IMG/VR virus record: IMGVR_UViG_3300032093_000003
Source of the DNA: a virus
Lineage: Duplodnaviria > Heunggongvirae > Uroviricota > Caudoviricetes
Strand: one strand, 5' to 3'
DNA: 64,000 bases
Below the pieces are notes generated by a model that was not told the DNA's origin, ran no database searches, and saw only the letters and a list, made by a program, of their open reading frames with translations. The translations under genes and the position numbers were made by a program. Positions within the stretch are counted from its first letter, which is position 1; every line of letters starts with the position of its first letter. Positions 25,688-56,418 of the stretch are shown one piece after another.

Positions 25688-25750
25688 CAAATATACACCC
25701 TCAAAATGTATATTTCCAAATTTTTTTTTCCCTTTAACAAAACTTTAACA
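25688..25750 (-). promoter_or_regulatory. Bacteroidota-type promoter (TTTGG...TATATTTG) with an adjacent TTAACA direct repeat
   Basis: TATATTTG at 25695-25688 and TTTGG at 25720-25716; TTAACA at 25734 and 25745 on +. Confidence 0.75.
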
Positions 25751-25893
25751 TTTCGGGGGTGAAGGTTCGGGGTGACTTTTTTCGTGGCGAGAACCTACAA
25801 AGATACAAAATTATTTGTTAATAAAAAGTTAAAGTTTTCGTTAACAAAATTTTAAGAAAAAAAATTTGGAGGTGAACCCGTGAAGGTTTGGAT

Positions 25894-25976
25894 TTTCTGT
25901 GGCGTGTAGGAAAAAAACCACAAAGGTACGAAATTATTTGTTAATAAAAAGTTAAAGTTATTATGAGCCAGAGAAA
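25894..25976. repeat. spacer element (gap 63), plus an extra left arm at 25779-25788
   Basis: TTTCTGTGGC 25894-25903; GCCAGAGAAA 25967-25976. Confidence 0.7.
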
Positions 25977-26103
25977 AAGTTTTCCGGGTGATCCGGGGTT
26001 TACCCGTAAAATTCTTTAACATAACATTAACATTCGGGTTGATTGTTTTGGGGTGTATAAGGTGTATATTTGTATATCGTTCACAAGTTAAAACTCTACT
26101 ACT

Positions 26104-26478
26104 ATGTTAAAAAGAACTCTCACACTCGGACTTCATCATTGGACTGACAATGACTTAATCCTGAACTTTTATGTTACCAAATTCGGTACTCGGTACATTC
26201 ATTTGAAAACCGAAGAAGAACTCTCCAAATTCATCGGTACAACTCCTTGTTCGTTTACCAAACAACAGATGAACTTCCGTTACCTTATGGGGTGTAAATC
26301 AAATGTCCTGACTGACTACTCCAAACTTCAAAAGTTGGTGTTTGAAATGTTTGATGAAATCTCCTTCTACGAATTTCATCAAATCGTGAAAAAGATAGTT
26401 GGACAAGATGAATACGAAAGAAATAAATTCTTTGTGGAAAATGGATATAACCCTGAACGAATGATAATGATAAGTTAA
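26104..26478 (+). CDS. hypothetical early protein (no alanine)
   Basis: 124 aa; promoter TATATTTG at 26065-26072. Confidence 0.75.
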   Translation: MLKRTLTLGLHHWTDNDLILNFYVTKFGTRYIHLKTEEELSKFIGTTPCSFTKQQMNFRYLMGCKSNVLTDYSKLQKLVFEMFDEISFYEFHQIVKKIVGQDEYERNKFFVENGYNPERMIMIS

Positions 26479-26498
26479 TCGGGTTGGAAACTGAAACG

Positions 26499-26527
26499 AA
26501 ACCTCAACAGAAATGTTGGGGTTTTTT
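26499..26527 (+). terminator. intrinsic terminator, identical to 29975-30003
   Basis: AAACCTCAACAGAAATGTTGGGGTTTTTT. Confidence 0.85.
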
Positions 26528-26571
26528 ATTTCCCACAGAACTCCGTGTTCACCAGATTCGCTGGTGGTAAA

Positions 26572-26689
26572 TTTCTTTGGCTTGTAGAACCAGTTAGAAG
26601 ATGTGGTTGGGGACACCGCATGCGAAAATATTTCTGTGGCGGTTGTCTTACATAATAGGGGTATTACAGGAGGTTACACGCCAAGGAAA
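26572..26689. repeat. spacer element with two left arms (gap 39)
   Basis: TTTCTTTGGC 26572; TTTCTGTGGC 26631; GCCAAGGAAA 26680. Confidence 0.8.
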
Positions 26690-26809
26690 TTCCATAATCC
26701 CGGATCACCTGTCGTGTCATCGTATTACACATTCACAAAACTTTAACAAAATAAATTTGGATATAAGGGTATAAATTGGTTAACTTTGACGAAACAAACT
26801 TTCAAAGTT

Positions 26810-27091
26810 ATGTCTTACACAAAAGAAGAAATCAAAATGAACTTGTCAAGAAACCCTAAATGGATAGAAAGAGCGTTGGTTGTCTTACATAACCTCCAAA
26901 CTACCGAAGAACAAATCACAAACGAAACAATCAAAGAGAATGGGGTTGGTTTTAATTCATCGGATAGTCGGTATCTCTCCTATTGTGCGAAATGGATAAA
27001 GGGTGGTAATCACTTAAACGAGAAACACCTCACTAAATGTGGTCAGAAACTCCCAAAGTATTGGAAACAAATACACTCAATGATTAAGTAA
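26810..27091 (+). CDS. conserved phage hypothetical protein
   Basis: ERALVVL...QTxEEQ...NGVGFN motif; ATG at 26810. Confidence 0.7.
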   Translation: MSYTKEEIKMNLSRNPKWIERALVVLHNLQTTEEQITNETIKENGVGFNSSDSRYLSYCAKWIKGGNHLNEKHLTKCGQKLPKYWKQIHSMIK

Positions 27092-27180
27092 CTTCACACT
27101 CCACTCAAAACATTAAACCTCCGATAGTATCGGGGGTTTTTTGTTAGAACTCCGTGTTCACCAGATTCGCTGGTAGATAT

Positions 27181-27224
27181 TTTTTGTGGCGGATAGGTAC
27201 AGATTAACCTACTCGCCATGGAAA
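27181..27224. repeat. spacer element (gap 24)
   Basis: TTTTTGTGGC / GCCATGGAAA. Confidence 0.8.
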
Positions 27225-27343
27225 ATTATCCTGATCGCAACAGCGGTTCACGGGGAAAATTCGTTAACAACATTTTAACAATAAAAATTTGGAAATATAA
27301 GGTATAATGTCGTATATTTGATAAACAATTAAAAACTACTACA

Positions 27344-27523
27344 ATGGACAAAATCACTCTCACACTCCTTCTCCTTACACTCGGACTAATGGGGTTAACA
27401 ATGTTATTCTCTCACTATATGAGGAATGACAAAATCTCAAACATTTTTCTTCGTGTTTTATTCGGTTTGACAATGATGACATTCACTCTCTTTATGATGG
27501 ACATTTTTCTCTCAAACATTTAA
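27344..27523 (+). CDS. 59-aa membrane protein
   Basis: MDKITLTLLLLTLG...; two hydrophobic segments; directly after a promoter. Confidence 0.6.
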   Translation: MDKITLTLLLLTLGLMGLTMLFSHYMRNDKISNIFLRVLFGLTMMTFTLFMMDIFLSNI

Positions 27524-27535
27524 TAACTACCAACT

Positions 27536-27874
27536 ATGACACACGAACAACTACACAACTTCGTATCGGAAAAAGGTGAAAGGGAATTTAACCCACAAGA
27601 AACCTTACAAGTATTAACCCACAACAGAACAACATATTGGTCTTGGGGTGTATCTAAACTCCTTAATATGTTTAATAAGGGGTTATGTTTGAAAGTATCA
27701 GGACATCACCACAAAGGTTGGGTAATCATCACACTCGGTTTTACAGACACTTACTCGGTGTTTTATGTATCAAACAATGGTAAAGTCAAAGATGAACAAC
27801 ACTTGGTCTATTTTGACGAACTCACCGAAAGGATAGATGATAAAATCGAACGAATACCGATTTACAAACACTAA
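27536..27874 (+). CDS. hypothetical early protein (no alanine)
   Basis: 112-aa ORF followed by a terminator. Confidence 0.75.
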   Translation: MTHEQLHNFVSEKGEREFNPQETLQVLTHNRTTYWSWGVSKLLNMFNKGLCLKVSGHHHKGWVIITLGFTDTYSVFYVSNNGKVKDEQHLVYFDELTERIDDKIERIPIYKH

Positions 27875-27967
27875 TCACGAAATCGTAATACAGAAACCCT
27901 CGACAAAAGTCGGGGGTTTTTTGTTTTTCCACAGAACTCCGTGTTCACCAGATTCGCTGGTGGTGAA

Positions 27968-28019
27968 TTTATGTGGCGGATCGTATTACAGATAAAGGTG
28001 GTATTACACGCCACATAAA
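27968..28019. repeat. spacer element (gap 32), perfectly complementary variant arms
   Basis: TTTATGTGGC / GCCACATAAA; two GTATTAC copies inside. Confidence 0.85.
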
Positions 28020-28058
28020 TTTTTTGGTTCAGATCCAGGTTTCCACCAGTGAAACTCT

Positions 28059-28114
28059 TTAACAATAGATTAACAAAATAAATTTGGAATATAAGGTTTA
28101 ATGATGTATATTTG
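28059..28114 (+). promoter_or_regulatory. type example of the early promoter: TTAACA-N5-TTAACA, TTTG (-33), TATATTTG (-7); about 25-30 such promoters between 26.0 and 50.7 kb
   Basis: TTAACA at 28059 and 28070; TTTG at 28083; TATATTTG at 28107. Confidence 0.85.
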
Positions 28115-28137
28115 TTAAACAATTAAAACATACTACA

Positions 28138-28392
28138 ATGGACAAAAACAAACTAATTAACAGAATTGAAAACATTGGTTTTCTTCTCGGTTGTTTTATC
28201 GGTTTATTAACACTTATGATGTTGGGGGCGGAACCTACTACTTGGGATGAGGATGGGTTGTACGATTATGAACACCTTTGGGATAAAGGAAATTCGGGTT
28301 GGTATGTTATGTGGACTTGGGTTTGGTCAGTTGTTACTTTGATTGGGTTGATAGTGGTTAGGTCATTCATTAAGAAAAGTTTAACAAAATAA
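28138..28392 (+). CDS. small membrane protein
   Basis: Two hydrophobic segments. Confidence 0.7.
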   Translation: MDKNKLINRIENIGFLLGCFIGLLTLMMLGAEPTTWDEDGLYDYEHLWDKGNSGWYVMWTWVWSVVTLIGLIVVRSFIKKSLTK

Positions 28393-28449
28393 ATTTGGTT
28401 TTACTCGGTATAAGTTGTATATTTGTATAAACAATTAAAAACAAAAATT

Positions 28450-28644
28450 ATGAAAAAGTTTTTCAGTTCTATTCTCGGTTTTCACTTGACAATTATGGTT
28501 GGGTTGGTTGTTATGTTTTACTTCAACAACTTGGAAGATAACTACCTAACAATCATTAACAACATTTTCTTGGTTATGATGTCTTTATCCGTTGTGTTAT
28601 CGGTGGTCTTATGTTACTTTGACAAACGAATTTCTAAAAGATAG
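28450..28644 (+). CDS. small membrane protein
   Basis: ATG at 28450 after its own promoter. Confidence 0.65.
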   Translation: MKKFFSSILGFHLTIMVGLVVMFYFNNLEDNYLTIINNIFLVMMSLSVVLSVVLCYFDKRISKR

Positions 28645-28746
28645 TTGTAGTTTTAATTGTGAACGAAACCACTCCGAAAGGGGTGGTTTTTTTATTTGTG
28701 GTATTACACAAAACTTGAATCGCGGTTCGAGCTGGGATTACACCTT

Positions 28747-28790
28747 TTTCTGTGGCGATCCGTATTACAGAAACCCACTCGCCATAAAAA
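28747..28790. repeat. spacer element (gap 24)
   Basis: TTTCTGTGGC / GCCATAAAAA. Confidence 0.8.
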
Positions 28791-28898
28791 AAGTTTACCA
28801 GGACGACAGGTATGAATATGGTTTTGAAAAATAAATTTGGAATCAAAAAATATAAGTTGTATATTTGTGTATTATCTAACAAATTAAATTTATATCAA

Positions 28899-29240
28899 AT
28901 GAAAGAACAAAATGAATGTAATGGAAAAATGTTTCCGAAAGGTTTTTGGTCAAAGAATGGTAAGCCCACACAAAACGCCTTAATGATGTATTTTGTGTAT
29001 TTGACACATTTACCTGAAAGTTGGAAAAAGAAAGTAGTACACAAACCCTCACTCGAAAAAACACGACAATACTTTGATGTTGATTATGGTATTGAATGTA
29101 TGTTAACTTGGGGGATACAATTTGGTTGTAAAAATTCTAAAACGTCAGATGAAAGACACCACGCAATGTCTTTGGCTTATCACGACGCTTTGGGTATGAT
29201 TGGTCAAGGTTACCGATACACCGAATTGAAAATTAAGTAG
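28899..29240 (+). CDS. hypothetical early protein
   Basis: ATG at 28899 after a promoter; terminator follows. Confidence 0.7.
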   Translation: MKEQNECNGKMFPKGFWSKNGKPTQNALMMYFVYLTHLPESWKKKVVHKPSLEKTRQYFDVDYGIECMLTWGIQFGCKNSKTSDERHHAMSLAYHDALGMIGQGYRYTELKIK

Positions 29241-29340
29241 TGTTTGGTTTTAATTGTGAACGAAAAGTCCTCAACGAAAGTTGGGGATTTTTTTTGTCAA
29301 GTCACAGACCTCCGTGTTCACCAGATTCGCTGGTGGACAT

Positions 29341-29384
29341 TTTTTGTGGCTGATCCTATTAGAGAAACCGACAAGCCATAGAAA
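29341..29384. repeat. spacer element (gap 24)
   Basis: TTTTTGTGGC / GCCATAGAAA. Confidence 0.8.
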
Positions 29385-29493
29385 TTTCAGGATGGAAGGT
29401 GATCCGAATTCACCTTCACAAAATTTTAACAAAAAAAATTTGGAATAAGTATGTATATGTTGTATATTTGTATAAATAATTAAAAAAAACATT

Positions 29494-29631
29494 ATGAAAA
29501 AGATTTATTCAGTTATCGTAGTTATCGTTCTTGTATCATTAACAATGTCCTCTTGTAAAACAAGTGGGTATGGTTGTAAGGGGAAAGAAAGTTGGGGTGG
29601 ATTGATGAAAAGAATTAACAAACCTTATTAG
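29494..29631 (+). CDS. 45-aa lipoprotein
   Basis: MKKIYSVIVVIVLVSLTMSSC lipobox; own promoter and terminator. Confidence 0.65.
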   Translation: MKKIYSVIVVIVLVSLTMSSCKTSGYGCKGKESWGGLMKRINKPY

Positions 29632-29747
29632 TAGTATGGTTGGTTTTAACCCGATGTTTTTACATCGGGTTTTTTATTTTTTTTAACATTTTAGATTTGA
29701 AATATAATATTTATTGTTGTATATTTGTTTAACTAAACCCACTCACT

Positions 29748-29951
29748 ATGAATTTACAATTAAGAACTGAACTAATCGGAAAAAGAATTATGATGATTTT
29801 TATGGATGACCCTCAACCTATTGAACCAAACACAATGGGTACAATTATCGGAGTTGATGGGTTAAATCAATATCAAGTCAAATGGGATAACGGAAGAAGT
29901 TTATCGGTTATACCCGAAGAAGACCAATTCGTCATTATTGACACAGAGTAG
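29748..29951 (+). CDS. small SH3-like (DUF4314-like) protein
   Basis: GTIIGVDG...VKWDNGRSLSVIPEED. Confidence 0.65.
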   Translation: MNLQLRTELIGKRIMMIFMDDPQPIEPNTMGTIIGVDGLNQYQVKWDNGRSLSVIPEEDQFVIIDTE

Positions 29952-30048
29952 TCCGTTCGTTCCCTCATAAAGACAAACCTCAACAGAAATGTTGGGGTTT
30001 TTTGTTTCTCCACAGAACTCCGTGTTCACCATGCTCCCGGTATGTCAT

Positions 30049-30092
30049 TTTCTGTGGCTGATCGTATTACAGGAAGTTAGACGCCAAAGAAA
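30049..30092. repeat. spacer element (gap 24)
   Basis: TTTCTGTGGC / GCCAAAGAAA. Confidence 0.8.
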
Positions 30093-30485
30093 TTTCCAAC
30101 GACCCGGATCAGGAAATCGCCTGTCGGTTATCTTCACAAAGTTTTAACAAAATAAATTTGGAATATAAAGTATAATGATGTATATTTGTTAAACAATTAA
30201 AAACTACTACAATGAAACAAGACAATTCTGACCAATGGATTCAAGGATTAACATTAATAATCTGTTTTATTACACTTGTTATTGTAATCTCCTTAAAGTA
30301 TTATCTAACGGGTGAAATCTAAAATAAATTTGGAATATAATAAATAATACCTTATATTTGTGTTATGAAACAGAAATACGAAAATAGATTTTACAAAATT
30401 TTACTTTTATTTTGGATGATGGTATTCACCTTTGTTTACTTTCAAATAAAATATCAATTAGTTTTCCATTTCTAAAAAACGAAAT

Positions 30486-30638
30486 ATGAAAAATAATTAT
30501 TTAAGTACAATTAAAAGAAAGGAACAAGTACAACAAGGAATGTACGATGGTCGTTTCCGTAGTCGTGTGGTGGTAGATAAGAAGAAGAAAGAAAGTAAAA
30601 ACAAATGTCGTGTTAAACTTAAAATCAATTATGTATGA
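30486..30638 (+). CDS. 50-aa basic protein
   Basis: QGMYDGRFRSRVVVDKKKKE; ATGA overlap with the next ORF. Confidence 0.6.
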   Translation: MKNNYLSTIKRKEQVQQGMYDGRFRSRVVVDKKKKESKNKCRVKLKINYV

Positions 30639-30844: not shown

Positions 30845-31067
30845 ACAGAGATAGACTAAATAAAATTGAAGAAATTGGTTTTCGTATTACAATGATATTG
30901 GTGTTTAGTGTTTTCACTATTTGGTTGATTGGAACGATTGTCAAGTTAATAATGATATTGTCGTCATAGTTTAGGTTTGGTTTTAATTGTGAAGAAATCC
31001 CTCAACGAAAGTTGGGGGATTTTCTTTTGGAGGAACTTGAGTCGTGGTTCACCGTGTCTTCAGGGAT

Positions 31068-31113
31068 TTTTTGTGGCTGATCGTATTCAGGTCAACCTCA
31101 CAAGCCACGGAAA
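31068..31113. repeat. spacer element (gap 26)
   Basis: TTTTTGTGGC / GCCACGGAAA. Confidence 0.8.
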
Positions 31114-31238
31114 TTTGGTAATCCGAATCACCTGTTTTCCTTCAGGAAATCCTTTCACAAATTTTTAACAAATTATTTTTGGAATAAAAATTTATATGGT
31201 GTATATTTGTTATATCATTAACAATTAAAACAAACATT

Positions 31239-31406: not shown

Positions 31407-31504
31407 TGTTCTAAATAAACCTATCAATAAAAATCCCTGACAATAGTCGGGGATTTTTTTTTCAAACACAAGAAGATGTGATCCGGATCAGCTCGACCGT
31501 GGAT

Positions 31505-31540
31505 TTTCTCTGGCTCAGGTCAACCTACAAGCCAAAGAAA
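31505..31540. repeat. spacer element (gap 16)
   Basis: TTTCTCTGGC / GCCAAAGAAA. Confidence 0.8.
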
Positions 31541-31676
31541 ATTAATAATCCAGATCCCGTCCCTGAAATTTTAACAAAACTTTAACACAAAATCCTTTAA
31601 CAACATTTTAACAATAAAAATTTGGAAATAGGTAGTAATAAGTTGTATATTTGTATAAACAATTAAAACAAATTTT

Positions 31677-32204: not shown

Positions 32205-32299
32205 GGTATTACACAACCGAAATATAAGGTAGTCATTTGACTACCTTTTTTTATGTCCATACCTATCCACGAGTCGTAGACAGAAGACGCGTCCGAAAA

Positions 32300-32342
32300 T
32301 TTCTCTGGCGGATCGGTATTCGTATTACAGGAGCCACGGAAA
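32300..32342. repeat. spacer element (gap 23)
   Basis: TTTCTCTGGC / GCCACGGAAA. Confidence 0.8.
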
Positions 32343-32465
32343 TTTCAACATCTCAGTAGACATCTCCTCGTCATCGTTAAATTCATTATGAAAACATTAA
32401 CAGAGATTTTTTGGAGATATAAGGTATTACATAGTATATTTGATAAACAATTAAAAACATATACT

Positions 32466-33183: not shown

Positions 33184-33279
33184 TCACTTACCTTTGATAA
33201 CAAAGTCCTCAACGAAAGTTGGGGATTTTTTTTGTCCAAAACCCAAGAAGATGTGATCCGGATCAGCTCCATCCGGGAT

Positions 33280-33322
33280 TTTACGTGGCAGATCGGTATT
33301 CGTATTACAGAAGCCACAAAAA
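33280..33322. repeat. spacer element (gap 23)
   Basis: TTTACGTGGC / GCCACAAAAA. Confidence 0.8.
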
Positions 33323-33446
33323 TTCCACTTCAGGACGACAGGTATGATTCTGATTTTTATTTTAACACTTTTTAACAAAAATAAATTTGGAGTGGAATTG
33401 TATATGTTGTATATTCGTGTATTGTTAAACAATTAAAACTAAACGT

Positions 33447-34096: not shown

Positions 34097-34190
34097 TTTT
34101 GGATTATCGTTTCATATTTACCCCCGATGTTTTTACATTGGGGGTTTTTGTTTCCCCGAACTCACCTTCACAGACAGCTCCATCGGGGAA

Positions 34191-34226
34191 TTTATCTGGC
34201 GGATCGGTTTATGGACGCCACGGAAA
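34191..34226. repeat. spacer element (gap 16)
   Basis: TTTATCTGGC / GCCACGGAAA. Confidence 0.8.
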
Positions 34227-34405
34227 TTTCTGGATGGAAGGATGCTCCTTCAGAAAATAAAATTTGTTAATAGTTTTTAACAAAATAAATTTGGAATAGG
34301 GGTGTATAAGTTGTATATTTGTGTTATGAAGAAACTAAAACCTTACATATTTCCGATTATATTGGTTATGTATGTTTTAATTAAAACATTCTTCAAACAT
34401 TAATT

Positions 34406-34951: not shown

Positions 34952-35054
34952 TTTTTTGTCATAAATAAAATAACCCCCGATGTTTCTACATTGGGGGTTT
35001 TTGTTTTTGGGGTATTACAACAAGATGTGTTGGGACGGTGAGCAGATCAGGGAA

Positions 35055-35090
35055 TTTCTGTGGCTGATCGTATTACACTCGCCATAAAAA
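35055..35090. repeat. spacer element (gap 16)
   Basis: TTTCTGTGGC / GCCATAAAAA. Confidence 0.8.
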
Positions 35091-35126
35091 AAGTGGAAGA
35101 CCAGAGCACCAGTCTTCAGGAAAAAC

Positions 35127-36628: not shown

Positions 36629-36730
36629 TTTAGTTTTAGTTGTTAAAGGGAAAAGGGTATCAGAAATGATACCTTTTTTTATTGCCCGAATTTGCGCTTA
36701 AGCTCGAACCAGTGCGCAACAGCTCGTGAT

Positions 36731-36765
36731 TTTCCGTGGCAGATCCGTATTACATGCCACAAAAA
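36731..36765. repeat. spacer element (gap 15)
   Basis: TTTCCGTGGC / GCCACAAAAA. Confidence 0.8.
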
Positions 36766-37029
36766 AATTACCATCCTGAGTCAGCATTTTCCTTCAGAAA
36801 AACATTAACAAATTTTAACAAATTAAATTTGGAATAAAACTATATTAGTTGTATATTTGTATAAATTAAATTGTATGGAACAAACAATTAAAAAAGAAAA
36901 GAAAAAAAGTGAACCGAAGTATTTTACGGATGAAGATGCGAAAAATGTATTTGTTTTTCAAGAACCATATAAAACAAGTGTAAAAGGTAAACCTATTCAA
37001 AAATCAATATCATTAAAATTTCGTAAACG

Positions 37030-37459: not shown

Positions 37460-37567
37460 AGATTAAGACAAGCAATCAAGTGAAAATTCCCTGATGTTTC
37501 TACATCGGGGTTTTTTGTTTTATGACTGTAAATAGATTACAGTCTGGTCCAGTGCGATCAGGTTGAT

Positions 37568-37604
37568 TTTCTGTGGCAAATCCGTACTATTGTTGCCACA
37601 AAAT
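37568..37604. repeat. spacer element (gap 17)
   Basis: TTTCTGTGGC / GCCACAAAAT. Confidence 0.8.
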
Positions 37605-37735
37605 ATTTTCCTGATCCGGATCACCTCCTCCTTCAGTAAATTCATTAAGAAAACTTTAACATAAATTATTTGGAAATATAAACAAAATAGATTTATATTT
37701 GTGTACTATCTCACTAACTATTAAACTCAAAAAAA

Positions 37736-38428: not shown

Positions 38429-38520
38429 CATTATCGTATTACATTTAAGGGGTATCAGAAATGATACCCTTTTTTGTTGCTGTCATCATAGCTCGATCGC
38501 AGCGCGCAACAGCTCGTGAT

Positions 38521-38565
38521 TTTCTGTGGCAAAATCGTATGACACAAAGTGACTTGCCACATAAT
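38521..38565. repeat. spacer element (gap 25)
   Basis: TTTCTGTGGC / GCCACATAAT. Confidence 0.8.
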
Positions 38566-38683
38566 ATTTTACAGTATTTGGGCTGGGGTCGTGATCCGAT
38601 CCTTTAACAAAAGATTAACGTAAATTATTTGGAAATAAAACTATAATAGTTGTATATTTGTGAAACAATTAAAAACAAATATT

Positions 38684-39883: not shown

Positions 39884-39974
39884 CCCTATAAGTGAATCGT
39901 GTATAACCCCAGCAAAAAGCTGGGGTTTTTTGTTGCTTTTCACCAGCCGATCGCAACAGCGCAACAGGTGGGAT

Positions 39975-40019
39975 TTTCTGTGGCAAGAAAATTACAGGGG
40001 AAACGACTCGCCACAGAAA
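39975..40019. repeat. spacer element (gap 25)
   Basis: TTTCTGTGGC / GCCACAGAAA. Confidence 0.85.
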
Positions 40020-40142
40020 TTTCAGATGACGCCGGGCTAAAAAGTTCGTAGCCCAGATCATAAAACACATTAACAAAAGATTAGCACAAATTATTTGGAA
40101 ATAGAACTATAATAGTTGTATATTTGTATAAATTAAAACATT

Positions 40143-40328: not shown

Positions 40329-40329
40329 T

Positions 40330-41188: not shown

Positions 41189-41314
41189 AGTTAAAGGAGC
41201 CGTTAAGTGTATAAAGATTAAACCGACAAAAGTTAAAAAGAAAAAGTAACCCAGAGAAATCTGGGTTTTTTGTTGCTTTTCACCAGCTGATCGCAGCGCA
41301 AACGCAGCTCGGAT

Positions 41315-41349
41315 TTTCTGTGGCAGGATCGACACACTTGCCACAGAAT
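41315..41349. repeat. spacer element (gap 15)
   Basis: TTTCTGTGGC / GCCACAGAAT. Confidence 0.85.
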
Positions 41350-41466
41350 ATTTTCCTGATCCCGGACATCTTTTTCTTCAGAAATCCTTTAACAAAAGAT
41401 TAGCACAAATTATTTGGAAATAGAACTATAATAGTTGTATATTTGTCTAAACAAAAACAAATCACA

Positions 41467-43829: not shown

Positions 43830-43923
43830 GTTAGATAGTAAGTGTGAACAAAGACCACTCCGAAAGGGGTGGTTTTTTTTGTTACGAACTCAGAATCTGC
43901 GGTCCTGAAGACGACGGGGAAAT

Positions 43924-43933
43924 TTTCTGTGGC
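43924..43933. repeat. half spacer element (left arm only)
   Basis: TTTCTGTGGCAGGATC between terminator and promoter. Confidence 0.7.
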
Positions 43934-44015
43934 AGGATCAAACTCTTTAACAAAACATTATGAAAATAAATTTGGAAATAGAAAGTATTATATTGTATAT
44001 TTGAAAAAAAACATT

Positions 44016-44426
44016 ATGATTGAAATGATTAAATCGGAATTGAAGTGGAGAGGAAAAGAAACCTACTCAATAGAAGAAATTATTGAAGTCATTGAGAAGT
44101 ATAATAAAAAAGAAGAAACTCATAGAGTTGAAAGTTGTGGGTTTGTTGCCGATATGGAAACCAGACAAATAACTATTGACGATAAAAAACACAACCTACC
44201 AAAAAAAGAATTTTTGATTATTCATTACCTTATGGAAAATAAAAACAAGGTATTGAATAGAGATAAGATACTAAATAAAATTTGGGAAGATGATGTGATT
44301 GTAATAAACAGAACTATTGATGTTCACATCAGGAGAATTAGAAATAAATTTCCAACAATTCCAATTAGAACAATTAAGGGAGTTGGATATACTTGGAGTG
44401 ATAGAGAGACTTTAACAAATGTTTAA
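44016..44426 (+). CDS. OmpR/PhoB-type winged-helix DNA-binding protein lacking a receiver domain
   Basis: LPKKEFLIIHYL...LNRDKILNKIWEDDVIVINRTIDVHIRRIRNKF...IRTIKGVGY; ATG at 44016 after a promoter. Confidence 0.85.
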   Translation: MIEMIKSELKWRGKETYSIEEIIEVIEKYNKKEETHRVESCGFVADMETRQITIDDKKHNLPKKEFLIIHYLMENKNKVLNRDKILNKIWEDDVIVINRTIDVHIRRIRNKFPTIPIRTIKGVGYTWSDRETLTNV

Positions 44427-46471: not shown

Positions 46472-46566
46472 TATGAGAAACCTAATCTGTACCTTTTTAA
46501 CCCCGACATAATGTTGGGGTTTTTTGTTGCTTGAACTTTGCTGGTCCTGTGCGCAACAGGTGAGAT

Positions 46567-46601
46567 ATTCTGTGGCAGACTAAACACACTCGCCACAGAA
46601 A
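46567..46601. repeat. spacer element (gap 15)
   Basis: ATTCTGTGGC / GCCACAGAAA. Confidence 0.85.
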
Positions 46602-46745
46602 TTTCAGATGACCGGGGTCAGGACAGTTTCAGGGTAAAACTATTTATATCTGTTAAGAAAATTTTAACAAAATAAATTTGGAAATACAAAGAAATAAGTT
46701 GTATATTTGTAATGTCATTTAATTATTAACTCAAAACTTTTTCAA

Positions 46746-47015
46746 ATGAAAAGTAAAGTAAAAAAACAAAAACACACCCTACTCAAAGGAGAGGGAGCAA
46801 ACCAACACACTCTTTACGGAGAGTTTAAGATTGATGAAGAAAAGTCCTTTGCAACATTGGAAGTAACAAAGGATAGTGTATTAAAACACGAACAACCTGA
46901 CGGAAGTTTCTCAAACGAACATCAAGCCTTAAAGATTGACAAAGGTAATTGGGTTATGGGAAAACAAGTTGAGTACAATCCGTTTTCTCGTTCAGTAAGT
47001 CAAGTTTGGGACTAA
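46746..47015 (+). CDS. conserved small protein, first gene of a 4-gene operon
   Basis: GEGANQH, LKHE...EH and QVEYNPF motifs. Confidence 0.7.
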   Translation: MKSKVKKQKHTLLKGEGANQHTLYGEFKIDEEKSFATLEVTKDSVLKHEQPDGSFSNEHQALKIDKGNWVMGKQVEYNPFSRSVSQVWD

Positions 47016-47041
47016 TTTATTCACACACTAAATCAACTCAA

Positions 47042-47446
47042 ATGGCAAATCCGTTAATTCATTCTAAATCCAGTGTTAAACGCTGGGGTGGAAAGGTAGA
47101 AGATTATTTACCTATTCACGAACTTATTGATAGTCCAAAAATGACTATGAATAATAATAGTGCGAGGTTACTTACTCACAATACCTGGTTCGCATACCAC
47201 ATTGTTCCGAAAATCTTTGGTTACAACATTGTTAATTCTGACGGAAAGTCCGTTGATGTTGTAGATATTGCGATGTTACATATTGCAGAAGATTTCCGAA
47301 TGAAGTTTGTACCGACACCACAGGACTATCTTAAACATTTAGAAGTCCAACCCTGGATGAATAATGGAGTTAAGCCCGTTGATAATCCCGAAGCGTACGA
47401 AATTGTTAAAAACTTAAATCAAAAATTACACGATTATGCAAACTAA
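47042..47446 (+). CDS. DUF6915-like protein
   Basis: MANPLIHSKSSVKRWGG..EDYLPIH and HIAEDF motifs. Confidence 0.65.
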   Translation: MANPLIHSKSSVKRWGGKVEDYLPIHELIDSPKMTMNNNSARLLTHNTWFAYHIVPKIFGYNIVNSDGKSVDVVDIAMLHIAEDFRMKFVPTPQDYLKHLEVQPWMNNGVKPVDNPEAYEIVKNLNQKLHDYAN

Positions 47447-48116
47447 TGAAGCAGTAAAACTCTGGAAGGAGTTAGGTATTACACACGCAAATATGGAGTT
47501 CAGTTGTGGTGGAGATAGTATGAATGACTACCACTTTACTTTCTACAAGAAAAACGATAGTAAGAAAAAGAATGTCCCCGAAGAAATTGAGGTTAATAGT
47601 CCCGAATTGGAAAGTTACTTTGACAAAGAAGTGTTTGATGAAGTTGAGTTTTATGTAAACTCTGACGGACACTACATTGGGGAGCACGGAAATGTTTATA
47701 TTGAATTAGATGATAGTGATGAAGATGAAGAAGAACATACTTTCATTTATTCAAAAAGTGCCAAAAGTGAGTGGTCGGAGAGAATTGAAGAAACAATGGA
47801 AATCAAATTATCAAAGAAGATGTCTAAATTTGTTTCGGAGTATGTTAGTAACATTAACGGAGAAGAAGGGAATTGTACTATCAATTTCAAAAAAGATTTC
47901 ATAATGTCTGACGAACAAGAAAAGTTGGTGGGAGAATTGGAAGAAATTGTATTACAAGAAACCGCAGACTTTGAGCCTTCCTATGATGAAGGGGAGAAAG
48001 AAGATTACTATACTTTCACAACAAATGACGGAGATGATAGAGAAGAATTAACTATCAAAGATGATAAGTTGTTGGTATCTGTTGGAACTTCGTTTATCAT
48101 TTACAAAGAAGATTAA
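47436..48116 (+). CDS. DUF6878-like acidic protein
   Basis: GITHANMEFSCGGDS motif. Confidence 0.55.
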   Translation: MQTNEAVKLWKELGITHANMEFSCGGDSMNDYHFTFYKKNDSKKKNVPEEIEVNSPELESYFDKEVFDEVEFYVNSDGHYIGEHGNVYIELDDSDEDEEEHTFIYSKSAKSEWSERIEETMEIKLSKKMSKFVSEYVSNINGEEGNCTINFKKDFIMSDEQEKLVGELEEIVLQETADFEPSYDEGEKEDYYTFTTNDGDDREELTIKDDKLLVSVGTSFIIYKED

Positions 48117-48144
48117 ATTATTAACAAATTAAATTAAATCAGTT

Positions 48145-48816
48145 ATGCAAATCGTTATCAATAATTTACAATTTCCGTATGACATTGGTTGTCGTATTTT
48201 GAAAGTGAAACACAAAGATTGTCCTTTCAGTCAGTTGGAAGATATTTGGGAAGATATTACCCCGATTACTTTCAAAGAGATAGCCCAATTAGAGAACTTG
48301 GAACAACGCCGTGTGGCTATGTTGAACTATGGGTTAGATAGATTGGTCAAAGAGATTAAACCCGAATTGATTGATAAGAAAACATTGAAGAAAACAACAA
48401 CTTGGGTTAGTCAAGACGGACAACTTGTTACCAAAAAATTCAATGACACTTATGAACTTTACAAAGTTAATGGGGAAGTTTTCGGTAAGGCTCGTAATTC
48501 TTGGTCAAAACCTGATGATTGTTACTATGTAAAGTGTAAGGACACAAGTACCGACAGAGAGTATTTCATTTGGGTTGATATGAAAAGTGTGGCAAACACA
48601 AATGGTCAGGGTTGGAATTGGGATATTAAAAAGGTCAATGCAATTCAGGCAATTGCTTGGACTATTCAAACGGACATTCCCGAAGGTTGTATTGAGAAGA
48701 TTGTAAGACAGGGAGATTGTGTGTTGATTAAACCGATAGGGAAGAAAGTAAAGTCGGAAAGTACAAGACACTTAACGGAAAGTGAGTACAAAAATCTGTT
48801 GGTCGCTGAGAGTTAG
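48145..48816 (+). CDS. DUF6745-like protein
   Basis: ENLEQRRVAM, VKCKDTSTDREY and AIAWT motifs. Confidence 0.55.
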   Translation: MQIVINNLQFPYDIGCRILKVKHKDCPFSQLEDIWEDITPITFKEIAQLENLEQRRVAMLNYGLDRLVKEIKPELIDKKTLKKTTTWVSQDGQLVTKKFNDTYELYKVNGEVFGKARNSWSKPDDCYYVKCKDTSTDREYFIWVDMKSVANTNGQGWNWDIKKVNAIQAIAWTIQTDIPEGCIEKIVRQGDCVLIKPIGKKVKSESTRHLTESEYKNLLVAES

Positions 48817-48905
48817 TAGTTTTTGACAAATGAAAGGGGGTACAATTAGTACCCCTTTTTTTATGCACTTTTTGTGCACTCGATCTGCATATTAACAGGT
48901 GAGAT

Positions 48906-48940
48906 TTTCTGTGGCGGATCAACTATACTCGCCACAGAAA
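48906..48940. repeat. spacer element (gap 15), 13-bp perfect inverted repeat
   Basis: ATTTTCTGTGGCG / CGCCACAGAAAAT. Confidence 0.9.
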
Positions 48941-49050
48941 ATTCTTGGTTCAGATCCTGAAATTTTTAGATATAATATCTTAACTAAACTTTAACGAAAA
49001 TAAATTTGGAATCAAAATATATAAGTTGTATATTTGTAAAAATTAAAATT

Positions 49051-49906: not shown

Positions 49907-50049
49907 TTTCTGTGGCAGAATAGTTTTATTGATTATCAATGAGTTATGAAAATAGCAAAAGTTGCAAAAGTTGCAGCAACACCAGAGCAAGTTGCCAGAT
50001 TCAGAGCTATGGATTTTCTGTGGCAGACATTTGTATTACGCCACAGAAT
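49907..50049. repeat. spacer element with two left arms (gap 15)
   Basis: TTTCTGTGGC at 49907 and 50015; GCCACAGAAT at 50040. Confidence 0.85.
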
Positions 50050-50182
50050 ATTTTTACCGTGCCGGGCTGGGGTCGTGATCAAAAATATTTTTGCAAAATT
50101 TTAACAAAATATATTTGGATTATAACTTTATCCGTTGTATATTTGTGATGTCATTAATTATTAAACTCTAAATTTTATTAAC

Positions 50183-52197: not shown

Positions 52198-52201
52198 AAC
52201 T

Positions 52202-52798
52202 ATGCCAAATTGGTGTTCAAACTCAATCACCATAACAGGTGATGAGGAAAAAATTAAATTCTTAAAGAATGTAATTGAGAATGGTATCCCCACTGAAAAA
52301 CGACAGGAAGCGAATGTTTTCATGACTCTCGTCGGAATTCCTCCTGACATGAATCTGTATGAATATGAACAGAAGTGGTATGGAACCAACATAGATAATT
52401 GGGGGACCAAATGGGATGTGGCATATAATGAATCTTATTTCTCTTTTGAGGATACTGAAATAACCATGTCACCTGATACAGCTTGGTCACCACCAATTGG
52501 ATTTGCTCAAAGTTTGGCAAGGAACTATGGGGTAAAGGTGGAGATGTACTATGAGGAACCAGGTTCCGACTTCTGTGGTAAAACTATAATCACTGAAGAT
52601 GGTACGTTGACGGAGGAGGATTATGATTTTGTACATGGGAAATATGTCTTTGATAAAGAAGGTTTTTGGAATGAAATTATAAATAATATAGAGTTTGCAA
52701 AAGAAGATGATGTATCTTTGGAAAACTTCATATTGGATTATGGTTATGTGAATGAAGAAGACAAAAAAGAGATTGAGAAATTATATAATGAATCATAG
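52202..52798 (+). CDS. YubB/DUF1281 (Api92-like) ferredoxin-fold protein
   Basis: MPNWCSN, NWGTKW, TAWSPP and YEEPG motifs. Confidence 0.75.
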   Translation: MPNWCSNSITITGDEEKIKFLKNVIENGIPTEKRQEANVFMTLVGIPPDMNLYEYEQKWYGTNIDNWGTKWDVAYNESYFSFEDTEITMSPDTAWSPPIGFAQSLARNYGVKVEMYYEEPGSDFCGKTIITEDGTLTEEDYDFVHGKYVFDKEGFWNEIINNIEFAKEDDVSLENFILDYGYVNEEDKKEIEKLYNES

Positions 52799-52843
52799 TT
52801 TTTATTTTTAACCAGCTGTTTATACAGCACAAATCAAACAAGT

Positions 52844-53323
52844 ATGGGTAGAGTTAACAAACTTACAGAGGGTGTGTTCACCAGTATCGTAGGTAATCAA
52901 ACAATCATTCCTTCGTATGACAAATTCTTAAATGTTCAGGACGATTTAAAAAAACCGAGTCAGGAACTTAAGAAATTAATCACACAATACAAGAAAGAAA
53001 TAACATCAAATAAAACAATATTTGAGAAGTTAGCAAAGCTTGAGGATGTGATTATGCAGATCCGTACACGGGACAACCTGTCCAATGATATGATCAAATT
53101 GAACATTGTCCGTGAGTACATCTACGCTCGTATTCCTTTCCATCGTAACGATAAGGAATCAAACGACATCCGTGTCATCGTTGGATTAACTGAATTCAAT
53201 GGTGTGGAAGTGGACAAGATGTATGACAACAAAGAGTTTATGGACAAAGCCAAGAATAAATTGGTTGAGGCTATGAACGAGATTATTAACCAAAATTTGG
53301 AAACTGTAAATAAAATAGATTAA
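52844..53323 (+). CDS. hypothetical coiled-coil protein
   Basis: 159-aa ORF. Confidence 0.7.
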   Translation: MGRVNKLTEGVFTSIVGNQTIIPSYDKFLNVQDDLKKPSQELKKLITQYKKEITSNKTIFEKLAKLEDVIMQIRTRDNLSNDMIKLNIVREYIYARIPFHRNDKESNDIRVIVGLTEFNGVEVDKMYDNKEFMDKAKNKLVEAMNEIINQNLETVNKID

Positions 53324-53324
53324 T

Positions 53325-54242
53325 ATGAAAAAGATTAACAATGTATTATCATTATGTGACGGTATCTCAATGTTCCAATACGCATTGAAAAAATCAGGAA
53401 TTGAGTACAAGAATTATTTTTCAGGTGAGATCAGTGAAACTGCTATGAGTATAGCAATGAAGAATTTCCCGAAAACAAAACAACTTGGTGATATCCGTAA
53501 CATCAAAGGAAAAAATTTACCTGAGATCGATATTATGGTTGCGGGATTTCCTTGTCAACAATTCTCAAGAGCAGGTAATGAAGATGGATTAACAGATATT
53601 CACGGAAATGTTCTCGACACATACAAGAAGTATCGTGAAGCCGATAAAAAGGGATGGATTAGAGAAGGATCTCAATCACACATTTTTTGGGAAGTATATA
53701 GGATCTTCAAAGAAGTTAAACCGAAGTATTTCATTTTTGAGAATGTTAAAATGGATCCAAAGTGGATGTACATCATATCAACATCTTTCGGTGTTAGTCC
53801 CATCTTAATAGATTCAAAATTGGTTTCCGCTCAACATCGTGAGAGATACTATTGGACAAATATTCCTGGTGCTATAATTCCAAAAGATAAAGGAATTCAT
53901 CTTTCAAGTATTATTCCTGATGCGATCGGTGGACACGGTGTTAGAAACATTGATACAGGTAAGAAAACTCCTGAAGGTAAAAAAGTTTGGCGTAAGAACG
54001 CTACAACAAGAAAAGATGGTAAGGCCAACTGTTTAACAACAAGAAAGGGTAACTGTTCCAAAGTGGAATTAAAGGACGGAACCATTAGACAAATCACCAT
54101 CGAGGAAGCTGAACAACTTCAAAATCTCCCGAAGAACTATACCAAAGTTCCTGGTGTTGCTGAAGGTAAGAGGTGGCACGCCATCGGTAATGGGTTCACC
54201 GTCAATGTATTTGTTCACCTATTAAAAGGTCTTAAAAAATAA
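53325..54242 (+). CDS. DNA (cytosine-5) methyltransferase
   Basis: Motif I LSLCDGIS, IV GFPCQ, VI FENV, VIII QHRERYYW and X GNGF. Confidence 0.9.
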   Translation: MKKINNVLSLCDGISMFQYALKKSGIEYKNYFSGEISETAMSIAMKNFPKTKQLGDIRNIKGKNLPEIDIMVAGFPCQQFSRAGNEDGLTDIHGNVLDTYKKYREADKKGWIREGSQSHIFWEVYRIFKEVKPKYFIFENVKMDPKWMYIISTSFGVSPILIDSKLVSAQHRERYYWTNIPGAIIPKDKGIHLSSIIPDAIGGHGVRNIDTGKKTPEGKKVWRKNATTRKDGKANCLTTRKGNCSKVELKDGTIRQITIEEAEQLQNLPKNYTKVPGVAEGKRWHAIGNGFTVNVFVHLLKGLKK

Positions 54243-54293
54243 ATTTTGTGGAAAACATTTCACATATTATATTTGTAATCTAAATCCAAGTGT

Positions 54294-54641
54294 ATGACAA
54301 ATAGCAATAGAATGTTAGTTCAGGATCTACAGAAACAACTGATCAATAAGGTTCTTTCCTTTATGGATGAGAATGATTTAAATATGGTGGAATTAAAAAC
54401 CCCACTCAGGATCTTTGTTGAAGAACCATCATTTGATGATTATGTTATGGTTCCAATTGTGGCGAGGTCATTGTATGCTGATGGTTCCATCGGAGCTTAT
54501 GATGAAGAAATAAAGATCGAGAACTGTAGTATCTACGAGATCGCATACATAATGGATGTTCTCGAGAGTGGGGACTACACGGTAGATGAAGACGACTTTA
54601 TCGATCCCGCTGGTGGACGAGGATTACATTCTCACATTTAA
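54294..54641 (+). CDS. hypothetical protein
   Basis: 115-aa ORF. Confidence 0.65.
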   Translation: MTNSNRMLVQDLQKQLINKVLSFMDENDLNMVELKTPLRIFVEEPSFDDYVMVPIVARSLYADGSIGAYDEEIKIENCSIYEIAYIMDVLESGDYTVDEDDFIDPAGGRGLHSHI

Positions 54642-54666
54642 ATTTCGTAACTCAAAACTCAAGTAT

Positions 54667-55239
54667 ATGCACACTATCAATCTCGGAAAAAAAGTGGTCG
54701 TATCCGACCCTTGTTACACCATCCCAACTTGGTGTCAAGCTGTAATCGAAAATGTAAAACCCGGCGTGTATCACACGACAGTCAGGAAACACGACGCTGG
54801 TGATTGGGGAAATCGTTGTTCAATGGTCTTTGCAATCCACGAGGAGTATGTTAACTTTGATCACCTGTTACACGGGAAATGGGAAGAACACCCAGCATCC
54901 ATCGGAGTTGACTCGGGTCAATGTGGGATCTTTTCTTTTGAATCCTACAGGAATGACGAAGTTAAGTTCGATTTCGAACCATATGACTTCGGTAATGATT
55001 ACCTTAGTAATAATGAGGGTGGTGACCTGTGGTATCGTCATATGTGTAAACACACATTGAGTGATCAATCTTGGGGAGTGTATGACAGTGGGATTGTTTC
55101 CAGTTCAGGATTCGGAGATGGAGCTTATCAATTGTATGTTGTTAAGAAACGAAACAAGATCGTGGCCTTCGCCATTGACTTTGGAGTTGAGGAGGGTAAG
55201 TACATCGACTTCGATTACAGGAAGAAAGAATTAGTTTAA
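54667..55239 (+). CDS. DUF4241-like protein
   Basis: SDPCY, VDSGQCG and SGFGDGAY motifs. Confidence 0.65.
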   Translation: MHTINLGKKVVVSDPCYTIPTWCQAVIENVKPGVYHTTVRKHDAGDWGNRCSMVFAIHEEYVNFDHLLHGKWEEHPASIGVDSGQCGIFSFESYRNDEVKFDFEPYDFGNDYLSNNEGGDLWYRHMCKHTLSDQSWGVYDSGIVSSSGFGDGAYQLYVVKKRNKIVAFAIDFGVEEGKYIDFDYRKKELV

Positions 55240-55305
55240 GAACTTGGTGGTCAAATGACCACCATTTTCATTTAAACCCTATTATAAAAATATAAATCTA
55301 ATATT

Positions 55306-55734
55306 ATGTACTCAGATAACTTGATCAGAATCATCAGACCATCTCAGTGGATTAATTTAATCTATATCGTTCTTGGTATTGCTTTGATCCAAACTATCTT
55401 TGTTCCCCTTCTTGCTGTCATCAAGATGTTGGATGTATATTTTTGGAGATATGAATTCAGGGAGAGGACCATCATTGAAAGAAGGGGAATATTATCCGTG
55501 ACAAGGAAGGAGGTTCACTTCTACAGGATTAAATCCATCAGAATCGACGAACCACTGTGGATGAGAATCTTCGGACTGTCCAAAGTATCCATAATCACCT
55601 CCGATCAATATCATCCTGAATTGGTTTTATACGCTGTATCCGACGGACATTACCTCCGTGAGTACATTAGATCTAACACCGATCAGTGGAGAAAGCTCGA
55701 AGGAGTTAAAGAATTTGACCTATATAACCTATAA
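55306..55734 (+). CDS. bacterial PH-domain (bPH_2) membrane protein
   Basis: N-terminal TM segment; RRGILS...FYRIKSI...RIFGLSKV. Confidence 0.7.
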   Translation: MYSDNLIRIIRPSQWINLIYIVLGIALIQTIFVPLLAVIKMLDVYFWRYEFRERTIIERRGILSVTRKEVHFYRIKSIRIDEPLWMRIFGLSKVSIITSDQYHPELVLYAVSDGHYLREYIRSNTDQWRKLEGVKEFDLYNL

Positions 55735-55888
55735 TTTATGATAAGTAAGATTGCTTGGTTCTTTGATTACTACATCTTGTACTTCCTGTACAATGAGAGA
55801 AAGATCAACAGGTACCATCGTAATATGATCAACAAGTACGGGGACAAATACAGAATACGAATCGACAGGTGAGATATGACCCCTCGAT

Positions 55889-55898
55889 TTTCTGTGGC
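55889..55898. repeat. half spacer element
   Basis: TTTCTGTGGC preceded by ACAGGTGAGAT as in the copies at 46.6 and 48.9 kb. Confidence 0.6.
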
Positions 55899-56022
55899 AA
55901 ATCCATATGGGAGAGGTATGCCCCGACAATAAGTTCTTTGAAATCCTTACTGGGATAAAGTTTTGTTAAAAAAAGTTACGGCAAGATTTTGTTTTCTACC
56001 ATTCATTTTGTATGTTTATGAT

Positions 56023-56235
56023 ATGAAGAAAACAACAACCAAGGCTACTCGTGGAACAGGTTCCAAGACAGCCAACAAGACCCGCCGCACCACTTATGTT
56101 GCGGTAACGAACAATGTTTACCATGACGGTACTAGTTACCGTGTACGTGTAAGTGTTGACGGTATCAAGTACAGCAAGAACTTCACTTCGAAGAAGAATG
56201 CTATTGCTTACCGCAACCAGTTGTTGTCCGCTTAA
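56023..56235 (+). CDS. small basic AP2-like DNA-binding protein
   Basis: YRVRVSVDGIKYSKNFTSKKNAIAYR. Confidence 0.6.
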   Translation: MKKTTTKATRGTGSKTANKTRRTTYVAVTNNVYHDGTSYRVRVSVDGIKYSKNFTSKKNAIAYRNQLLSA

Positions 56236-56328
56236 TTCGGACACAACCTCACACAGGTAAACAATCTCAGTAAGACCTTCGTGGATAAATCCTATACAGG
56301 TGTATGGGACCCACGGGGTCTTTTTACA

Positions 56329-56357
56329 TTACGGACCTCCCTTCGGTCGGTCCTTCA
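56329..56357. repeat. 29-bp hairpin repeat, copy 1
   Basis: TTACGGACCTCCCTTCGGTCGGTCCTTCA. Confidence 0.8.
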
Positions 56358-56418
56358 GGAAAATGAACATCAGATTTTCCGTGGCATAACTATGCTCATT
56401 AATTAACCAAATATATTT

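Follow-up and report, generated by a model that had tools for sequence, protein, structure and literature searches.

Paired inverted arms upstream of early promoters in the cassette array of a T4-type jumbo phage: candidate half-sites for a lineage-specific DNA-binding protein

The early-gene array and its spacer element

We analyzed a 64-kb stretch of the IMG/VR virus record IMGVR_UViG_3300032093_000003 (the window), in which an array of early-gene cassettes is interrupted by GC-rich spacers that carry a pair of short inverted arms. The source is a single virus record of 286,785 bp with a Gp23 major capsid protein (Pfam, 214.9 bits) at genome positions 59031-59798, and the phage is a T4-type myovirus of jumbo size. 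The record is 86% complete, which limits every genome-wide negative given below. Window positions 25-57 kb correspond to genome positions 140-175 kb.

Between 25.7 and 56.4 kb of the window the genes are nearly all small and on the plus strand. All 37 plus-strand matches of the window to the Bacteroidota promoter pattern TTTG-N17-23-TAnnTTTG lie within 26.7-54.9 kb, and the promoters fall in long repeat families (D1-D9), which include TTAACA-type boxes upstream of the -33 element. Terminator-like sites are about four times as frequent as in shuffled sequence (35 versus 8.8 +/- 3.0). Given the confinement of the promoter matches, the promoter repeat families and the excess of terminators, we regard the promoter-gene-terminator cassettes as real, as an earlier reading of this DNA from its sequence alone (the sequence-only reading) had proposed. 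Cassettes and short operons each have a promoter of their own. The paired element is present at only about 20 of some 36 promoters, and the other 15 are compact junctions in which a stop codon or terminator directly precedes the promoter.

Most of the approximately 50 array open reading frames (ORFs) that were scanned match no Pfam family. The families recognized in the array are DUF932, SprT-like, GP88-family, DUF6915, DUF4314, the bacterial PH domain, a receiver-less OmpR/PhoB winged helix and an orphan C5 methylase, the last at window positions 53325-54242. Rfam and tRNA scans of the window gave no match.

The spacers that carry the element differ in composition from the rest of the array, with a G+C content of 43.5% versus 31.9% and 13.4 versus 0.48 GATC sites per kb. 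The observed-to-expected ratio of GpC is 0.87 in the spacers and 0.30 in the rest of the array, whereas CpG is normal in both (25700-51000). The avoidance of GpC and GATC in the transcribed parts of the array could be a constraint on transcripts, if the spacers are untranscribed.

The arm motif TTTNNNTGGC has 49 matches in the window versus 7.0 +/- 2.5 in shuffled sequence, and none of 100 shuffles reached 49. On both strands of the whole genome, about 45 of 65 TTTNNNTGGC matches lie inside genome positions 140-175 kb. Pairs were defined by 11-nt arms with at most three mismatches and 15-63 nt between them, the motif-detection thresholds being set by the analyst. By this definition the window holds 21 inward-facing pairs, together with six solo left arms (25779, 26572, 43924, 49907, 55889 and 56376); control pairs of outward polarity, sought in the window with the same limits on arm length and mismatches, were absent (Table 1).

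The flanks of the element are also repeated. We found CAGAACTCCGTGTTCACC at 26536, 27932 and 30013, with a variant at 29305, a 26-mer at both 31469 and 33244, and GATCGCA(G/A)C at 27233, 38495, 39949, 41289 and 49882. Inspection by eye, which was not a systematic search, showed GGGA or GTGA before the left arm, TTTC after the right arm and no obvious target-site duplication of the kind expected beside MITE or transposon terminal inverted repeats. Much of the sequence-only reading is upheld by these data: the estimate of about 25 spacers, the identity of the terminators at 26499-26527 and 29975-30003, and the positions of the flank subfamilies and of GATC-GTATTAC between the arms. Its view that the array is not one of clustered regularly interspaced short palindromic repeats (CRISPR), integron attC sites or repetitive extragenic palindromic (REP) sequences also agrees with our results, as the units repeated here are inverted arms, lying 0.3-6 kb from one another with intervening genes, unlike the constant-length direct repeats of a CRISPR array, which alternate with unique spacers of similar length, and recombinase and Y1 families were not found in the record.

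Table 1. Positions of the paired elements, solo left arms and other features in the window
Feature	Position	Strand	Remarks
Early-gene cassette array (hyperplastic region)	25750..56390	+	about 36 Bacteroidota-type promoters, many terminators, about 60 small genes
Paired element	25893..25977		63 nt between arms; array start
Paired element	26630..26690		39 nt between arms; GTATTAC in insert
Paired element	27180..27225		24 nt between arms; arm differences are three G-T wobbles
Paired element	27967..28020		32 nt between arms; perfect ATG/CAT arms; two GTATTACA boxes
Paired element	28746..28791		24 nt between arms
Paired element	29340..29385		24 nt between arms
Paired element	30048..30093		24 nt between arms; insert GATCGTATTACA
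Paired element	31067..31114		26 nt between arms
Paired element	31504..31541		16 nt between arms
Paired element	32299..32343		23 nt between arms
Paired element	33279..33323		23 nt between arms; weak hairpin folding
Paired element	34190..34227		16 nt between arms
Paired element	35054..35091		16 nt between arms; next promoter unusually distant, 158 bp
Paired element	36730..36766		15 nt between arms
Paired element	37567..37605		17 nt between arms; right arm GCCACAAAATA
Paired element	38520..38566		25 nt between arms; GTATGACA in insert
Paired element	39974..40020		25 nt between arms; perfect arms
Paired element	41314..41350		15 nt between arms
Paired element	46566..46602		15 nt between arms; left arm TATTCTGTGGC; precedes conserved four-gene block 46746-48816
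Paired element	48905..48941		15 nt between arms; perfect arms
Paired element	50014..50050		15 nt between arms; solo left arm 49907 with TTGATTATCAA insert upstream
Solo left arm	43924..43933	+	-33 box of winged-helix gene promoter 37 bp further on
Solo left arm	49907..49916	+	followed by TTGATTATCAA module; region conserved in closest relative, L026 13559-13826
Solo left arm	55889..55898	+	near array end
Solo left arm	56376..56385	+	array end
Receiver-less OmpR/PhoB-type winged-helix protein	44016..44426	+	sole recognizable DNA binder in array
Example promoter module	40063..40140	+	TTAACA-type boxes, -33 TTTG, -7 TAnnTTTG; reference copy of repeat family D3
Example intrinsic terminator	39905..39927	+	ends DUF932 cassette; left arm 39974 starts 47 bp further on

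Arm sequence, spacing and promoter distance

The set of relatives consisted of 87 fetched contigs. A search of IMG/VR with the DUF932 protein gave seven loci, and the conserved 134-aa DUF6915 protein led to 503 freshwater metagenome loci, several of them on contigs of 231-334 kb; 80 of the 503 were kept. This protein (window 47042-47446) is unusually conserved for the array, with 85-96% identity in the 80 loci, and its gene travels with three neighbors as a fixed block, 46746-48816. A megablast search with 8 kb of the array against GenBank phages gave no match. Paired arms occur in dozens of the related freshwater contigs. In this genome the arms are almost confined to the early block, and in each of three larger relatives' contigs the arm 9-mer is confined to one block of 15-20 kb.

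Copies in the same genome conserve the sequence of the arms, not pairings specific to each copy. Reshuffling of the right arms among copies did not lower complementarity in five relatives (P 0.8-1.0) and did so only marginally in the window (P = 0.008), a value that we attribute to the subfamily structure of the window. The same stem mismatch is found in most copies of whole genomes, T:C in the contigs L007 and L008 and T:T in L005 and L010. The copy-by-copy compensation that the sequence-only reading had seen in the middle three bases of the arms therefore did not hold.

Between genomes, both arms switch together at at least six of the 11 positions. The window has CTGTGGC/GCCACAG, its closest relative (L026, approximately 77% nucleotide identity) has CTGTCGC/GCGACAG, and further types among the relatives are GTTTGGC/GCCAAAC, GTTTCGC/GCGAAAC, GGTTGGC/GCCAACC and GAATGGC/GCCATTC. 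Arm detection demanded near-complementarity, which biases the pair counts but not the variety of self-consistent arm types. Concerted change of this kind is the pattern that would be expected of operator families co-evolving with their binding protein. The many copies of one short intergenic site with a lineage-specific consensus are likewise what a multi-copy operator family would show.

Arm-to-arm distances in 110 unique copies peak at 4, 14-16, 22-25, 35-38, 44-47 and 54-55 nt, with a periodicity of 10-10.5 bp (R = 0.62). When the copies were collapsed to 68 mutually dissimilar inserts, the periodicity persisted (R = 0.53 at 10.5 bp, Rayleigh p ~5e-9), and the 36-nt spacing class is common to about 10 unrelated inserts. 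The preferred insert length differs from genome to genome.

In 13 of 20 window copies, 62-67 bp separate the right arm, measured from its end, from the -33 TTTG. Across 99 dissimilar clusters this distance is most often 61-65 bp, smaller peaks lying near 54, 43 and 72, and the segment between right arm and promoter has 33% identity among copies versus 26% for random sequence. Between solo left arms and the -33 box downstream, the relatives have either 7-9 or 17-20 bp (R = 0.44 at 10 bp), and in the lineage of L008, L020 and L021 a single arm stands at these distances before many promoters. A promoter-proximal left arm replaces the TTAACA boxes in one lineage (L021 3129-3146, L019 3108-3204, and L008 5709 and 18424).

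Readings of the element

We give an even chance to the reading that the arms are half-sites, bound in double-stranded form at early promoters by a DNA-binding protein specific to the lineage. A hairpin would have no cause to keep step with the helix, and a neutral spacer would be free to change in length; for these reasons the arms are read as duplex half-sites functionally tied to the promoter. Among the options listed by the sequence-only reading, a paired protein-binding site is thus the one favored, by the sequence-conserved arms, the helical-turn spacing, the fixed promoter distance and the solo arms near the -33 box. The two inverted arms would be bound as half-sites by a sequence-specific protein on ordinary duplex DNA, upstream of early promoters served by the host polymerase, and the protein would probably be phage-encoded and fast-changing between phage lineages. 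The arms hold a fixed mutual rotational setting regardless of the insert, the promoter-proximal arm lies about 63 bp before the -33 box, or roughly at -100 from the transcription start, and in relatives a lone arm can directly precede the -33 box. We infer that the bound protein would raise, lower or time early transcription, like an upstream activating site or operator, and that the inserts (GATC-GTATTACA and TTGATTATCAA) may be sites for further factors or for Dam methylation. The arm homologies also add to shuffling of the promoter-early stem-loop (PeSL) type, driven by repeated promoters and terminators.

Several results weigh against this half-site reading. The relatives are metagenomic contigs of common ancestry, and their copies are not fully independent despite clustering. 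The right-arm distance statistic is dominated by a single peak, its periodic side modes being weak, and a helical register between the promoter and the left arm of paired copies was unsupported (R ~0.06). The symmetric co-variation of the arms is predicted equally by a base-paired stem. The 15 promoters without the element indicate that it is not required for promoter function as such; they also make the dedicated boundary element of the sequence-only reading too strong a claim. An arm-binding protein was not found, since the Pfam scan of about 50 array ORFs recognized no DNA-binding domain other than the winged helix, and the recognition helix of that protein is conserved between the window and L005 despite their different arms.

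The invariant TTAACA boxes may be read by the winged-helix protein, for which the arms are a less likely target. The TTAACA boxes are direct repeats 11 bp apart, a more natural target for a protein of the OmpR/PhoB type given the general biology of that family. A peptide-pattern search of IMG/VR found no relatives of this protein. Its ORF could encode 185 aa (43869-44426), but the start is probably at 44016 (136 aa); a terminator, a solo left arm and the promoter at 43971 all coincide with the part of the ORF upstream of this start.

The inserts between the arms are of more than one kind. GTATTACA is a separate strand-biased motif that also occurs outside the arms, with 24 copies on the plus strand of the genome versus three on the minus strand. 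In 741 kb of relatives, GTATTAC(A) is found 651 versus 215 times by strand and stays constant while the arms change (window 26661-50033, L005-L091); it lies beside either arm, just upstream of the TTAACA boxes, or just before or after terminators. GTATTAC(A) may be a second promoter element or the site of another protein. Many copies of the element have no GTATTAC. A second type of insert, of about 35-37 nt, contains the palindrome TTGATTATCAA (window 49907-49960, L009 1869-1905, L010 12533-12567 and L011 13407-13441), and some of its copies fit the IHF consensus WATCAANNNNTTR.

In the lineage of the window and L026, one GATC directly follows the left arm and another comes about 15 bp past the right arm; relatives further away do not keep this arrangement. 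Outside the window, the genome encodes a Dam-family (D12 class) adenine methylase at positions 230735-231466 and a second methylase, of N6/N4 type, at 207282-207725. Since a Dam-family methylase is present and GATC lies beside the arms in this lineage, methylation-sensitive binding at the arms is possible.

An IMG/VR pattern scan with perfect window-type arms found unrelated phages only. In two of the four loci read, TTTCTGTGGC-N22-GCCACAGAAA straddles a sigma-70-type TTGAC/-10 promoter with a small gene downstream (L002 391-432 and L004 6581-6622). This looks like a self-regulated operator, whose identity in arm sequence with the window looks like coincidence. We count the case in favor of the half-site reading insofar as it suggests that a palindrome of this kind is able to work as an operator.

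It is unlikely that the arms instead pair in single-stranded DNA or extrude as a cruciform, with a nuclease, HUH enzyme or recombinase recognizing the structure and the GTATTAC loop as the site of action. The co-change of the arms between genomes is compatible with such a hairpin, as are the strand-specific conserved box within the loop and the folding of perfect copies at -8 to -12 kcal/mol (z -4 to -8). However, a hairpin gives no rationale for loops quantized at about 10.5 nt, there is no copy-specific compensation, and stem mismatches are fixed genome-wide. At 26-36 kb the copies gain little in folding over shuffled sequence, and extrusion is poor for 11-nt arms around loops of 15-63 nt. 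The genome gave no match to Y1 transposase, viral Rep, integrase or resolvase, although the Viral_Rep search was run without a positive control and is therefore weak. The sequence-only reading had listed a single-stranded hairpin among its options, and it is disfavored by the same data that favor paired binding sites and by the weak folding.

GTATTAC resembles the end of the circovirus-type origin nonamer, which is located in a hairpin loop. A nick site like that of circular Rep-encoding single-stranded (CRESS) DNA viruses was considered from this resemblance, and was reduced to a minor rival since the box is missing from many copies and the loops come in quantized lengths.

A dedicated recombination function is less likely still. 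In that case the arms would bound mobile cassettes, and a phage protein would excise and insert units as in an integron but with no known integrase. We hold as equally doubtful the form of this idea in which cassettes are exchanged by a dedicated system that uses the arms as seams, with a phage protein binding the phased palindromes and joining and separating units at the inner edge of the left arm; if it were true, T4-like phages of Bacteroidota would own an integron-like shuffling device with none of the known recombinase families. The array gene order is thoroughly rearranged among the relatives while orientation is kept, as cassette exchange would have it. Near-identical contig pairs revealed 12 distinct recent cassette indels, flanked by repeats of promoter, terminator-spacer or arm sequence, with the junctions of L020/L029 and L063/L081 read base by base. 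In eight of the 12, the tract shared at the junction contains the left arm or stops precisely at it, and in three of these eight it is the arm alone (14-18 bp). The repeat family D10 of the window (83 nt; terminator, spacer and left arm) also stops at the inner edge of the left arm.

On the other side, promoter sequence alone, without the arm, is the shared tract in three of the 12 indels. At 50-70% protein identity, adjacencies were broken at six of 10 junctions with the element, four of four with a promoter only and nine of 21 within operons, with no evident excess of breaks at the element; the near-identical contig pairs carry more weight than this comparison. No match was found in the 287-kb record to tyrosine recombinases (PF00589, for which the control genomes were all positive), serine recombinases or resolvases, or Y1 HUH transposases (PF01797). 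A crossover site needs a fixed central spacer, and here it varies from 4 to 63 bp. Short perfect repeats, moreover, are expected substrates of T4-type recombination and need no dedicated enzyme. Because integrase, resolvase and Y1 transposase were not found, we prefer to view the arms as convenient short homologies for the general recombination of the phage, and with about 20 copies in the same orientation they also act as such in cassette gain and loss. The recombination handle suggested by the sequence-only reading is thus retained in part. Gene order is shuffled and the shared tract involves the left arm in eight of 12 recent indels, but promoter repeats are used as well, junctions that lack the element are broken too, and no recombinase of the families searched was found.

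We consider it just as improbable that the element acts in RNA, either as a read-through hairpin for processing or stability or as a back-up terminator formed by the left-arm T-run and a preceding GC-rich hairpin. Such a hairpin with its T-run scored as a second terminator, behind the main one, at 26549-26567, 29314-29340, 33257-33277, 37540-37565 and 43903-43919, yet it is present in only about one-fourth of the copies. The inserts always face the same way with respect to transcription, and G-T differences between the arms outnumber C-A differences by 12 to 6, a bias that is not significant. The spacers, however, are positioned behind strong terminators, and the transcribed array avoids GpC and GATC while the spacers do not, suggesting that the spacers escape a constraint on transcripts. 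Helical quantization and a fixed promoter distance are properties of DNA, and there was no match to an Rfam family in the window. We also considered the arms as the U-tracts of two face-to-face terminators and rejected this, as only about five of 20 copies have a qualifying hairpin on the plus strand and one on the minus strand.

Least probable, in our view, is that the arms are functionless parts of a spacer module copied with the promoters and terminators and homogenized by gene conversion: although whole spacers form positional subfamilies, and arm variants (fixed mismatches included) and preferred insert lengths are genome-specific, drift would not retain palindromy through at least six position changes across lineages, quantize insert length over unrelated inserts or hold 61-65 bp across unconserved sequence, and the element is retained in dozens of contigs.

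PeSL-type arrays house and exchange the host-takeover and anti-defense genes of large lytic phages, and their control is poorly known outside the phages of E. coli. The element gives a widespread clade of uncultured freshwater jumbo phages a precise, testable cis-element, for which the natural TGGC and TCGC variants are ready-made specificity controls. If a protein reads it, that protein would be a master regulator of the early program in a phylum with non-textbook promoters. The junctions at base level suggest in addition that a regulatory site of 11-16 bp can double as a substrate of cassette gain and loss.

Comparison with known systems

PeSLs are the promoter-early stem-loop cassettes of T4-type phages (Arbiol et al. 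2010, PMC2839356; PMC4122927). The stem-loop is located just upstream of the promoter (PMC4122927), and the repeats, composites of terminator and promoter, border indels and swaps in the hyperplastic regions of these phages (Comeau et al. 2014, PMC4122927). The array studied here is a PeSL-type hyperplastic region and so of a known kind: it belongs to a T4-like phage, holds small accessory genes, combines a terminator stem-loop with a host-type early promoter, and has repeats at its indel borders. The 15 compact junctions, with a terminator or stop codon abutting the promoter, are like those of classic PeSLs. A further mark of PeSL arrays is mini-circle excision between tandem repeats, as seen by PCR. 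In contrast to classic PeSLs, about 20 junctions have an extra GC-rich spacer of 100-200 bp with an inverted pair of 11-bp sites, and the promoters of the array follow the -33/-7 pattern of Bacteroidota and have TTAACA boxes. In the PeSL papers, in a 2025 study of large Bacteroidota phages from aquatic habitats (PMC12619734), whose text lacks the word "intergenic", and in searches of open-access full text, we met no account of a palindrome reiterated upstream of promoters that combines helically quantized half-site spacing with concerted arm switching.

Four further systems share part of this arrangement. The attC likeness lies in imperfect inverted repeats of variable length between small accessory cassettes that run one way. 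No integrase was found here, however, and each cassette has its own promoter, whereas integron cassettes are promoterless and expressed from a common one. The arms are also spaced by the helical repeat of the duplex, whereas attC sites work as folded single strands, conserved in structure and not in sequence. The arm polarity is also opposite, with a T-tract and GGC on the left, to that of the attC consensus RYYYAAC.

In E. coli, bacterial interspersed mosaic elements (BIMEs) of the RIP type consist of two inverted REP units around an IHF site; each REP is a hairpin, and these units are linked to RAYT transposases. The element described here is likewise extragenic, lies behind terminators, and has two inverted units with an insert able to hold the site of another protein. 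It differs in that its arms are not self-complementary and in that Y1 transposase was not found in the record.

The stoperators of Cluster A mycobacteriophages are many dispersed sites of the immunity repressor, single and asymmetric, which block elongation in temperate phages. As with the stoperators, there are at least 20 intergenic copies of a short site per genome, with a consensus that differs between related phages. The sites here are instead inverted pairs, or solo arms by the -33 box, and they lie upstream of early promoters in a T4-like phage of lytic type.

Upstream sites that work only at integral helical turns are those of CRP at class I promoters, Fis at rrn P1 and the cooperative lambda repressor. 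A rotational register is similarly seen between the arms, and the solo-arm promoter distances in the relatives differ by about one turn. What sets the present element apart from these phased sites is that its palindrome tolerates from zero to five extra turns between the halves and is reiterated at about 20 promoters.

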